Origin: Bacilli bacterium
Lineage (GTDB): Bacteria > Bacillota_I > Bacilli_A > RF39 > UBA660
Reading direction: 5' to 3'
Length of the DNA stretch: 64,000 nucleotides
Assembly (NCBI GenBank): GCA_022009835.1
Contig: CP091726.1
Coordinates: 115,553-179,552, forward strand
Below are positions 56,501 through 59,500 of the stretch, one piece after another (the stretch's first letter is position 1; each line of letters starts with the position of its first letter). The position numbers are program-made.

Positions 56501-59500
56501 TGCTTATTGGCAAAACTAAGGATGAGGCTATCTATATTATTGATAATTATTTGAAAATGATTAATGAAGAGGAATATGATAAAGATTTATTAAAAGAACT
56601 TTTAGCATTTGATGACACTAGTAAACAACCTTCTAGAATCAAATGTGCTACTTTGTCCGCTAATGGTATTAAAAAAATATTTAGAAAATGAAAATCACTC
56701 ATAATATAATGGGTGATTTTTTTGTTTATCCACAGTTATTGTTGATTAATTAATTTTTGTAAAGTGACGACTTTTTATATATGTAAAATATTAATTATAT
56801 GTTATAATTATGGTAGATAGGAGGAATATTTATGGGTTCTAGTAACTATAATAGTGTTTTAAACAATGACGTTTTAGAAGATAACATATTTAATATTTTA
56901 GATCCAATAATCACTAGGATAGGAATTGAAAACAGAAGACAGCAAGGTGTATTAGAAAGATTGAAAGAACAATATCAAAAAACAAAAGCGGAAGAATTTT
57001 TAGGAGGTATAAAAAGTACTGAAAGTGCTATGAAATTAATTGATAGACAAGTACAAAATATTACTAAACTATCTGCTGCTATTGATAAACTTAAATCTGC
57101 TAATGAAAATAATTTTAATGTAATTGCTAATGAAATTAATGTTGCCTTTTCAAATCTTTGTAGTTTTTATGGCAATAGTAAATGGGCTCTTACTGACACA
57201 GAAAAACAAAGTTTAAGTGCTGCTATTGCTAACCTAGCTAATAATTATAAAAAAAATTTAACACCTAAAAATAATGCTGATTTACAGAATAATACTAATT
57301 CTCGTGGTAGTACCAATTTAAATAATACTACTAATTTGCAAAAGAGATACTAGCTCAGTAAAAAAAATAGCAAAAATAAATATTCAAAAAGAATAATCCA
57401 CTCAGAGCTGTTCTTGGTAAATTTGGTATTAAAAAAAGAGAAAAATGAAGATGTTATAATGGTTGATTATAATTATCCTAGTATGAGAAAAATGATGAAA
57501 CAAGAAGATTTTTGATAATTTAGTTAGTGATTTTTGGTTTTACTTGATACTAAAGAAAAAAAGCAGACTTAATTATATCTTCTATGAAAGAAGATATTGC
57601 TATCTTTAAACAAATTAGTGAGTTAAATAACTTACATTTTTGATGTTGTTTTTTTAATAGAGAGATTGTTGATGTAACTAAAGATAATCCCTCTGTTGAT
57701 GATTATTATGAGGCAATTTTTGTTTATTTAAAAATGATGGAAGATGTATCTGGAAAATTATTAGATTATTTTGCAGATAACACTTAAAATGATAGTTTAA
57801 TTTAGAGACCTTAGGCTCTAAATTACTATAGAAAGACTATAGGCTTTCTATAGCACGGAAGAGACGATAGGCTCGGAGTGAAAAAAAGTTTGTAAAAAAG
57901 ATGTAAAGATGTTTAATTTACTTCTTTTTTTTGGTACAATATTAATTAGGAAGTTTAGGTGGTATAATGCAAGATAAAATGGAAAAATTACTTAACCAAA
58001 TTGGTATGAGTAAAGATTACTTAGAAAAACTCTAGTATTAATAAAATTATTGTTTATGATAAGAATAATTTATGGGAGTTTATTATTGATAATGATAAAG
58101 TACTACCTATATATATTTATGAAGAATTATATAATAAAAATTATGAATACTTTTTAATGCTATTAAAGATATTCATATTATTATTAATACAGATGATGAT
58201 AGTAATAATTATATCGATGATTATTTTTGATAAGCTTATTGATATTCTTTTGTAATGAAAGTGTTAAATATAAAACCTTTATTGATAGAAAGTTATCTAT
58301 TAAAGATGGTAATTATTTATTTGATGTTTATAATAAGGCTGAACTTTCTTATATGACAGAAAAGAAGGAATATTTGAATACTATGCTTAATAGATATGGT
58401 TTTTAATGGTAATATTATTTTTTTAATTTATGTAATGATGCTGAAAAATGATATTTTTAAATATGATAGAAAATGATAAAATTGTTAATATTCCTACTGG
58501 TAGTTTTTGCTCCTAAAAAAAGAGTGTTCCTGAAGTAAAAGTAGAAGAAAAAAAATATTTTAGGCCTAAAAAGAGATACTAGTATTACTCCTATTAAAGA
58601 TTTATTATATGAAGTTGATAACATTACGATTAATGGGATGATTTTTGGGATGGATTTCTTTGAATCTAAGAGTGGATATAAGATTATTACTCTTAAAGTT
58701 ACAGATAATACTGATAGTATTTATGTTAAATTATTTACTAAAGATAATGATGAATATGCTAGAATTAAAGATTTACTTAAGGTTGGTTCATGGTATAATT
58801 TTTATGGTAGGGTTGCAATGGATAAGTTTGCTAATGAGCTTACATTTACTACAAGATATAAAGATGTAGATAAAATAGAAGGTACTACTGATGAAAAAAT
58901 AGTAGATAACGCTGAAATTAAAAGAGTTGAACTTCATGCACATACGATGATGAGTCAAATGGATGGAATTACAAAAGTTGATTTAGGTAAACATACTTGT
59001 GAACTTGTTAGTAGGTGTATTGACATGGGATATAGGGGAGTTGCTATTACCGACCATAATGGTTGTCAGGCTTTTCCTATTGCTTACGATATTATTAAAG
59101 GTTATAATAAGAAACAAGAAGATCCTAATAAAAAATTTAAAGGTTTATATGGTACGGAACTTACTGTCGTTGATGATACTGTTAATATTGTAGTTAGACC
59201 TGATGATAGAATGCTTAAAGATATGACGTATGTTGTATTTGATACTGAAACTACTGGTTTTAATGCTGGTGGGGCTGACCAAATGATTGAAATTGGTGCT
59301 GTTAAGATTAAAGATGGAATTATTATTGATAGATTTGATGAATTAATTGATCCTGGTAGACATATTCCTGATAAAAATTACTGAACTTACTTGTATTACT
59401 GATGAGATGGTTAAGGGTAAAGATAATGAAGAGAATGTTACTAAAAGATTTTTAGAGTGGACTGGAGATAATCCAATGGTTGCTCATAATGCTAAATTTG

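Follow-up and report, generated by a model that had tools for sequence, protein, structure and literature searches.

A 64,000-nucleotide stretch of contig CP091726.1 (positions 115,553 to 179,552 of the forward strand), from a member of the Bacilli lineage UBA660 and hereafter called the window, contains seven genuine copies of a dispersed family of tandem hairpins. Each copy, or module (M1 to M7), is a short row of consecutive hairpins (H1, H2, and H3) that share the sequence AGAC-N3-9-GGCT at their tops, and the assignment of the seven sites to one family is statistically solid. In kind, these are repeated extragenic hairpin elements, although their build is unusual in combining an invariant mismatch platform, freely covarying stems, and direct tandem units. 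Neither Rfam 15 nor the searchable literature describes the family. We read it, with a probability of about 0.42, as a new REP/BIME-like hairpin family whose members are recognized by a hairpin-specific protein, probably in the form of single-stranded DNA, and act incidentally as terminators or RNA hairpins.

The motif AGAC-N3-9-GGCT occurs 17 times on the forward strand of the window and not at all on the reverse strand, compared with 2.67 ± 1.71 occurrences (maximum, 7) in dinucleotide-preserving shuffles. Fifteen of the 17 matches lie inside the seven modules. Eleven of these have five to eight further contiguous flanking base pairs, and the remainder are the short-stemmed last hairpins. 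The two matches outside modules (44010 and 50865) have no stem, and their number is that expected by chance. A covariance model, R1, was built from 13 training modules, nine from other organisms and four from the window, with M1, M4, and M5 left out. Run unfiltered on both strands of the window, R1 returned exactly the seven modules already located in the preliminary description, all on the forward strand, with 25.5 to 87 bits. Beyond these, nothing in the window scored better than E = 0.3, except weaker reverse-strand echoes of the modules. The window thus holds seven modules with 18 hairpins in 64 kb, all of them intergenic, or approximately one module per 9 kb.

Pairing in the stems is conserved far more strictly than chance would allow. 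In a model-guided alignment of 28 distinct modules, 98.0% of cells held standard pairs, compared with 77.5% after shuffling, and changes on both sides were seen in 23 of 28 pairs, a count reached by none of 500 shuffles. When the partner was slid by one to three columns, only 25–54% of cells paired. This alignment was fitted to structure and its pairing counts lean towards structure, but the margin is still very large. Compensated pairs were also present in orthologue alignments made blind to structure. H1 of M1 reads AAAGTAG/CTACTTT in the window and ACTTTAG/CTAAAGT in locus L128 (L numbers denote loci of relatives), which amounts to three compensated pairs, and H2 of M6 differs from its counterpart in L120 by one compensated pair.

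The modules share a recognizable plan. The stem of H1 is long and A/T-rich, and in many modules an A-run precedes it and a T-run follows. H2 is frequently TTTTTGAAGAC..GGCTTCAAAAA or CATTAAAGAC..GGCTTTAATG, and its stems can be recognized between paralogues. H3 has a short GAG/CTC stem, frequently above tandem G.A/A.G pairs and a base of 3–4 bp. One example of a family hairpin is TTTAGAGACCTTAGGCTCTAAA. Because this H1-H2-H3 plan is shared, the copies descend from a single ancestral module of ~85–90 nt and did not evolve independently. The stems had been described beforehand as complementary and covarying, which they are, and as completely different between copies, which was an overstatement given the H1 and H2 stems that paralogues share. 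The last hairpin had been given the form CAC..GAGAC-N4-GGCTC..GTG; this describes M6 and M7 and fits M3 to M5 only loosely.

The top of the stem is the invariant part. There, 5'-GAC opposite 5'-GGC forms a G-C pair, an A.G mismatch, and a C-G pair, as originally described; in the window, H2 and H3 of M2 depart from it. Tolerated changes are the replacement of the closing C-G pair by T-A (H3 of M2 and a minus-strand copy in L120) and of the first G by A, while the A.G opposition is constant. Among hairpins of the form G-x-y..y'-x'-C with at least five more pairs, 39 unique hairpins carried GAC..GGC and none carried a "repaired" GCC..GGC or GAC..GTC. Four-nucleotide loops are mainly YNNA (CTTA, 13; TATA, 8; TACA, 5). 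In the long-loop copies (H1 and H2 of M4 and H2 of M5), the helix continues above the C-G pair, and A.G is therefore best read as a 1×1 mismatch; a bulged A with a triloop, as proposed by RNAalifold, was rejected on the same ground. A K-turn reading of H3 was also rejected, as the tandem G.A/A.G pairs come without a 3-nt bulge.

Mismatches in the stems distinguish the two strands. In pairs outside the top pair, 11 cells held G.U and 2 held A.C, and at the top Y-G pair, there were 42 U.G and 1 C.A. Every G.U on one strand corresponds to a C.A mismatch on its complement, and it is therefore the strand reading AGAC..GGCT whose folding is kept. Folding energy did not discriminate between the plus and minus strands. 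What is shown is selection for pairing and for a three-position asymmetric platform; it acts on one strand in particular, whatever the direction of the genes. The earlier proposal that the element acts as RNA or single-stranded DNA rather than as a duplex site is strengthened by the excess of G.U over A.C and by the lack of repaired tops.

Modules were searched for in other genomes and metagenomes. A triple-hairpin pattern applied to one genome per species gave, among the matches listed, at least six true modules from four low-G+C metagenome-assembled genomes, namely JAZTXT01, CAKOMD01, and CAKOQV01 (all "Bacilli bacterium") and CAZPSA01 ("uncultured Clostridium sp."). Most of the other listed matches were unrelated CRISPR arrays or tandem repeats in high-G+C genomes. 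With a more specific pattern, 60 loci were found in metagenome contigs, and 54 of them were true modules, mostly at 24–31% G+C; where the record name stated a source, it was a human-gut assembly. Three orthologous classes were distinguished: class 1 corresponds to M2, class 3 to M6, and class 2, which has no copy in the window, lies upstream of an RNase J gene. The same metagenome loci also hold orthologues of M1, M3, and M7, as well as new sites. In contigs from viral collections, 1 of 20 matches was a true module, located in an ordinary spacer between a gene stop and a promoter, and a phage origin was rejected on this basis.

Sister lineages were sampled at eight polC loci (L200 to L202 and L204 to L208; ~155 kb), in which the PolC C-terminus is 69–86% identical to that of the window. 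Neither R1 nor a relaxed hairpin scan found a module in these ~155 kb, in which ~17 would be expected at the density of the window. The module-free locus L208 has the polC–LRR–small open reading frame (ORF)–polA order of L120; in it, ordinary terminators follow both the upstream gene and polC, and polA has no spacer before it. By these comparisons, the family is specific to one lineage: a narrow clade of uncultured AT-rich human-gut Bacilli either gained it or kept it while it was lost elsewhere. Patchiness of this kind is characteristic of REP- or MITE-like repeats and is not what an ancient regulatory RNA would typically show.

The orientation of modules was compared with transcription. All window modules lie on the plus strand, as do nearly all genes, and six of the seven are sense to both neighbors. 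The single polarity initially noted is a property of the window (17 motif matches vs 0). It is not general, as relatives carry antisense, convergent, and divergent copies. Intact antisense modules were found inside an operon, in the gap that follows mutL and 30 nt from where the next gene starts (L131); immediately after whiA (L019); after lon (L049); and in the spacer separating an amidase gene from a UvrD-like gene (L166, L134, and L137). The class 2 module occupies a divergent spacer upstream of the RNase J gene, M7 is likewise divergent, and the modules of L120/L141/L149 and L043 are in convergent spacers. Over ~10 independent loci in tandem-gene contexts, 6 copies were sense, all of them from the window, vs 3–4 antisense, and the antisense copies keep AGAC/GGCT and the U.G pairs on the non-mRNA strand. 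These intact antisense, convergent, and divergent copies indicate that polarity does not follow transcription. Nor do modules generally stand after a terminator and before the promoter of the next operon, as had been supposed from the window, and a 3'-UTR or leader role that such a placement might imply is not general either; at M7, the gene upstream is a minus-strand DUF4190-like gene, and no co-oriented gene precedes the module.

Orientation was also compared with replication. Overall GC skew was uninformative as a strand marker because it is dominated by the coding strand. We therefore relied on third-codon AT skew read on the coding strand (AT3), taking negative AT3 as the sign of a leading-strand gene; this is a proxy that uses no oriC or ter position. 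AT3 was negative in 24 of 25 plus-strand ORFs of the window and +0.30 in the minus-strand gene, and in the syntenic loci L155, L051, and L120, all plus-strand genes were negative and all minus-strand genes positive. Modules lay on the leading strand as assigned by AT3 at 11 of 13 independent loci. This fit of module orientation to the leading strand is suggestive.

Module anatomy is only partly terminator-like. A T-run follows H1 in about half of the modules (M2, M3, class 1, and class 2) and is absent from M4 to M6, H2 and H3 are followed by A-runs, and a terminator scan found no canonical terminator at M6 or M7. The modules are thus not uniformly canonical terminators.

In the reading that we favor, a REP/BIME-like family read as single strands, the G-C / A.G / C-G platform would be the recognition site of a hairpin-specific protein acting in trans. 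The form recognized would more likely be transient single-stranded DNA at the replication fork than mRNA, since module orientation ignores neighboring genes and fits the putative leading strand, which has the sequence of the lagging-strand template. REP-RAYT and IS200/IS605 TnpA offer analogies for such single-strand reading, and the two hairpins at IS200/IS605 ends are likewise direct repeats on one strand. The hairpins would also enter transcripts in either orientation. With H1 between an A-run and a T-run, a module inserted either way could give a terminator-like hairpin or a 3'-end barrier at an operon border, and this side effect is a possible reason for the retention and positional stability of modules. 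The partner might be a protein confined to the clade that docks on the platform, either a non-canonical single-stranded DNA transposase or recombinase or a factor associated with replication forks or RNA 3' ends; we consider this specific proposal possible rather than probable.

Several observations weigh against the favored reading. With an IS200 TnpA sequence as the query, tblastn gave no Y1/HUH transposase match better than E = 2.5 in the window, as the preliminary description had it, or in 673 kb of related loci from partly sampled genomes. The module alignments contain no conserved foot sequence or GT[AG]G tetranucleotide, only the AGAC..GGCT top being invariant, and the units inside each module are all direct tandem repeats, not inverted REPIN/BIME pairs. 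Module positions are stable between species at 73–93% DNA identity, with no sign of recent mobility; the compared orthologous loci showed neither a recent insertion nor a target duplication nor a clean empty site. The T-run of H1 and placement right after stop codons fit a purely RNA-level role equally well. The leading-strand assignment comes from a noisy codon-skew proxy with exceptions (the minus-strand copy of L120 and L049), two genes beside the RNase J locus contradict that proxy, and the seven copies of the window alone cannot separate replication from transcription.

The main rival, which we rank below the favored reading and regard as possible rather than probable, is an RNA-level cis element: a hairpin cluster at 3' ends or between cistrons that terminates transcription and/or blocks 3'-to-5' exonucleases, with the top serving as an RNA-binding-protein site or a folding nucleus. 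Hairpin clusters have been proposed as intrinsic terminators (PMC8355165). The window suits this rival well, with six copies sense to both neighbors, several modules beginning at a stop codon, modules upstream of promoter-like sites of the next gene, and H1 followed by a T-run in about half of the modules; tolerance of G.U fits RNA as well as DNA. However, it must treat the intact antisense copies, which make up 3–4 of ~10 tandem-gene loci, as exceptions. The lack of a canonical terminator at M6 and M7 also counts against it, stability alone does not explain an A.G mismatch that is never repaired, and a partner that is a conserved housekeeping RNA-binding protein is hard to reconcile with the absence of modules from sister lineages.

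Independent small RNA genes, for example CsrB-like multi-hairpin protein sponges with their own promoters on the AGAC strand, are improbable. Three hairpins with the same top per module and a functional strand that is fixed whatever the neighbors would suit such genes, and promoter-like hexamers abut H1 in L019 and M7. Against this, a density of ~1 copy per 9 kb is much too high for such genes, and modules have no conserved promoter upstream. The putative −10 elements overlap the 5' arm of H1, and in DNA this rich in A+T, promoter-like matches are no more frequent than chance predicts. More improbable still is that the inverted repeats are operators, bound as double-stranded DNA by a dimeric regulator or a nucleoid-associated protein. 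A duplex protein site has been raised as a possibility for hairpin motifs generally by Weinberg et al. (PMC1950547), and the modules do have arms that form inverted repeats in intergenic DNA near promoters. Yet the arm sequences vary freely while complementarity is kept, and the sole invariant part is asymmetric (AGAC vs AGCC) and of constant sense. G.T is tolerated and A.C is not, which would be meaningless in duplex DNA, and the excess of G.U over A.C on the AGAC strand therefore speaks decisively against both duplex operators and chance palindromes. Least credible is a regulatory leader of the downstream gene, such as riboswitch-like tandem hairpins (mini-ykkC) or an ANTAR target. Tandem hairpins with conserved loops and covarying stems, and eight loci where module and downstream gene point the same way, would suit such a leader. 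However, no theme unites the genes that follow (valS, rmuC, secA, NUDIX, hydrogenase, polC, polA, and RNase J), the loops match neither the ACGR tetraloop nor the A1/G4 hexaloop type, and no Rfam family matches at the gathering threshold. Some copies lack any co-oriented gene downstream, and a leader role is already contradicted by the convergent and antisense copies.

Extragenic palindromes are well studied in Proteobacteria and poorly known in AT-rich uncultured gut Bacilli. Here, the selected part is cleanly separated, as a three-position asymmetric platform plus pairing, so that the search for a protein partner is well defined, and the covariance model is a specific marker for one gut lineage. 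If orientation follows the replication fork, the single-strand DNA logic of REP/RAYT and IS200/IS605 would extend to a new sequence class; if the element instead acts at the RNA level, it would represent a clade-specific protein-hairpin pair at operon borders.

The features of the window are collected in the following table.

Table. Hairpin modules and accompanying repeats in the 64-kb window (positions are those of the window; R1, covariance model score)
Feature	Position	Strand	Anatomy	R1 (bits)	z	Context
M1	8880–8937	+	H1 8880–8910 (aaagtagAGAC-N9-GGCTctacttt); H2 8912–8937 (tttatgaAGACTTATGGCTtcataaa)	47.5		after gmk and a TATCAACA-type palindrome (8842–8862); order gmk, M1, valS
M2	20623–20707	+	H1 20623–20650 (T-run); H2 20654–20678 (AGAC..AGCT); H3 20681–20707 (AGAT..AGCT)	75.3		begins at stop codon of upstream gene; next gene rmuC
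M3	27650–27729	+	H1 27650–27671, then T-run; H2 27677–27702 (TTTTTGAAGACCTTAGGCTTCAAAAA); H3 27703–27729 (CACC AAA GTGAC TACA GGCAC GGA GGT)	79.3		TATC[C/A]ACA palindromes 5' (27576–27596, 27620–27640); order hpf..M3, secA; orthologue in L155
M4	42660–42739	+	outer helix TATGgC/GCATA around TGATACA; H1 42673–42704 (8-nt loop); H2 42705–42734 (CAC..GTG base)	25.5	−4.06	upstream of NUDIX gene
M5	45908–45982	+	outer helix TATGGA/TCCATA around TGATACA; H1 45921–45947; H2 45948–45976	34.5	−4.34	separate terminator-like palindrome 45846–45874; Fe-hydrogenase-like gene downstream
M6	57798–57880	+	H1 57798–57825; H2 57826–57853; H3 57854–57880 (CAC GGAA GAGAC GATA GGCTC GGA GTG)	87	−4.22	begins 10 nt past upstream stop codon; polC start ~90 nt downstream
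M7	63078–63157	+	H1 63078–63103 (one A.C mismatch); H2 63105–63132; H3 63133–63157 (CAC AAG GAGAC TATA GGCTC AA GTG)	82.2		divergent spacer between DUF4190-like gene (62654–62999, − strand) and polA
TATC[A/C]ACA palindromes	8842–8862, 14537–14557, 26643–26663, 26682–26702, 27576–27596, 27620–27640, 45850–45870, 56727–56747; 41874 (weak)		TATC[A/C]ACA-N5-TGTTGATA			
ATTTCC(C/T)GGGAAAT palindromes	62619–62632; 63169–63182					after polC; after M7, before polA
63-nt coding repeat	17375–18462		17.3 tandem copies, 85% match			
Related shorter array	20168–20341					

The genes that flank the modules were as previously named (valS, rmuC, secA, NUDIX, hydrogenase, polC, and polA). The preliminary description had assigned two or three hairpins to each module, which holds in general; the third segment of M1 (8938–8970), 3' of H2, is not a family hairpin. 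It reads CGA(A/G)C(G/A)AC..GAAGTGTGAGA(C/T)G and is kept in both loci with M1 orthologues (L148, ~840–870; L128, ~4495–4526). In H3 of M2, the change of the closing pair is compensated. A TGATA(C/G) box, previously reported upstream of four copies, does abut H1 in M1, M4, M5, and M6, but orthologues do not keep it. M4 and M5 constitute a subfamily with a TATGG/CCATA outer helix, single-stranded TGATACA, and two hairpins, which is three-way-junction-like (z of about −4).

The window has a G+C content of 26%. Its ORFs are heavily fragmented, with 1–2-nt insertions in A/T homopolymers relative to L120 (e.g., at 58031, 58140, 59377, 59782, 61016, and 62566), and an exact database look-up of a window protein returned no record. 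In L120, which is 84% identical over polC, polC and polA are intact under translation table 11, and genetic code 4 was rejected as an explanation. Because the window has such A/T-run insertions while the L120 genes are intact under the standard code, the fragmentation reflects assembly quality, not an altered code or pseudogenes, and the hairpin cores are unaffected. In addition, the segment 22907–24967 is inverted relative to L155 (4977–7006) and L051 (2635–4663), and a plus-strand ORF within it (23780–24136) has the AT3 of a lagging-strand gene, which suggests a recent inversion or a misassembly. Among the more distant relatives, polC was called as two ORFs in L200 (7372–11872), L202 (7171–11749), L204 (7283–11908), and L205 (6520–11272). 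Most of the top database matches to the PolC C-terminus are fragments of 400–690 amino acids, and TGA read-through (table 4) does not explain the split, which may come from assembly frameshifts or be real.

Other palindromes accompany the modules. A second intergenic hairpin family, TATC[A/C]ACA-N5-TGTTGATA, usually followed by a T-run, has nine matches with at most three mismatches, compared with 1.08 expected. One half of this palindrome is identical to the DnaA-box consensus TTATCCACA. Its copies often stand shortly before modules (M1, M3, and M5) and also occur in the class 3 flanks of relatives, and they behave like shared-stem intrinsic terminators. The palindrome ATTTCC(C/T)GGGAAAT, found twice compared with 0.14 expected and kept in L120 at ~7783–7800, may be an operator or a terminator. 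In L138 (576–637 and 2672–2789) and L170 (1–61), a gene 3' end is duplicated, one copy being followed by H1 and a T-run and the other by a full H1-H2-H3; H1 can thus stand alone as a terminator-like hairpin. A strong consensus promoter (TTGACA-17-TACAAT / TATAAT) directly follows the module in L019 (6875–7250) and L191 (~1300–1385, minus strand), and a long structured leader, possibly a T-box or riboswitch, precedes the next gene. The 63-nt (21-codon) repeat presumably belongs to a leucine-rich-repeat-type surface protein, and the corresponding genes vary between relatives.

Known families were compared with the modules. An Rfam cmscan of the whole window with all 4,227 families of Rfam 15 gave nothing at the gathering threshold, permissive E-value scans of M6 and M7 gave no family, and the searchable literature, queried by sequence and keywords, held no specific match to the AGAC/GGCT module, in line with the earlier impression of REP/BIME- or MITE-like elements belonging to no described family. 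CRISPR arrays were rejected since stems differ between units, spacing is 27–32 nt without spacers, and there are at most three units. ANTAR targets consist of two hairpins overlapping a terminator, with hexaloops that have A at position 1 and G at position 4 (PMC3369931). The modules, with mostly 4-nt YNNA loops, three hairpins, and no gene theme, were rejected as such targets. The Streptococcus small RNA family SSRC8_2 (RF02616, Streptococcus sRNA 8) contains, at model positions 152–177, a hairpin (auuuuuGaGACCCUAGGCuCaaaaau) with the same GAGAC-N4-GGCUC top. Identity with it was rejected because only this one hairpin is shared and the best match is sub-threshold (18 bits vs a gathering threshold of 72); SSRC8_2 is moreover a single conserved streptococcal locus, not a dispersed element.

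The MAEB motif of Burkholderia is a genus-level intergenic hairpin that occurs 2 to 12 times in succession and for which roles as a repetitive element and as an RNA bound by a protein have been considered (Weinberg et al. 2007, PMC1950547). MAEB and the modules both oppose two purines at a conserved position, by which their two strands can be told apart. It differs from them in sequence and phylum, gave no cmscan match, and lies 5' of primary-metabolism genes, whereas the modules have no gene theme and occur in both orientations. Pneumococcal BOX and SPRITE, also from Bacilli, are structured intergenic repeats of modular build whose internal hairpin units vary in number, and SPRITE imitates intrinsic terminators. 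The modules described here have no sequence similarity to them and no boxA or boxC termini, and they repeat the mismatch platform in every hairpin.

Closer in organization are the subterminal hairpins of IS200/IS605 elements and PATEs, which, like the modules, comprise at least two similar imperfect hairpins in direct orientation on one "top" strand. In IS200/IS605 ends, it is the irregularity of the hairpin and not the stem sequence that is recognized, and the same would hold for the modules. Ton-Hoang and colleagues reportedly linked the orientation of IS200/IS605 to the lagging-strand template in 2010. The modules differ in having three hairpins per unit and in showing no defined cleavage sites, guide sequences, or signs of recent mobility, and no tnpA or tnpB was found in the sampled DNA (the window and related loci).

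REP/BIME elements of Enterobacteria and Pseudomonas offer the broadest comparison. Membership in REP/BIME proper fails on two features: the modules have no GTAG (GT[AG]G) box, conservation being confined to the stem top above covarying stems, and their H1-H2-H3 units are direct rather than alternating inverted copies. No RAYT gene was found in the sampled DNA (the window and 673 kb of related loci), and the host is an AT-rich Bacilli lineage. In other respects, the two are alike. Both are short imperfect palindromes present at ~1 per 8–9 kb, strictly intergenic and often clustered, lineage-restricted, and partly kept in position between related species, and both combine single-strand reading, proposed here for the modules, with side effects on termination and mRNA stability. 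If the platform is indeed the docking site of a protein found only in this clade, Bacillota would have evolved a REP-like system independently, one with a different recognition logic in which the mismatch at the stem top is conserved, the stems are free, and the units stand in direct tandem.

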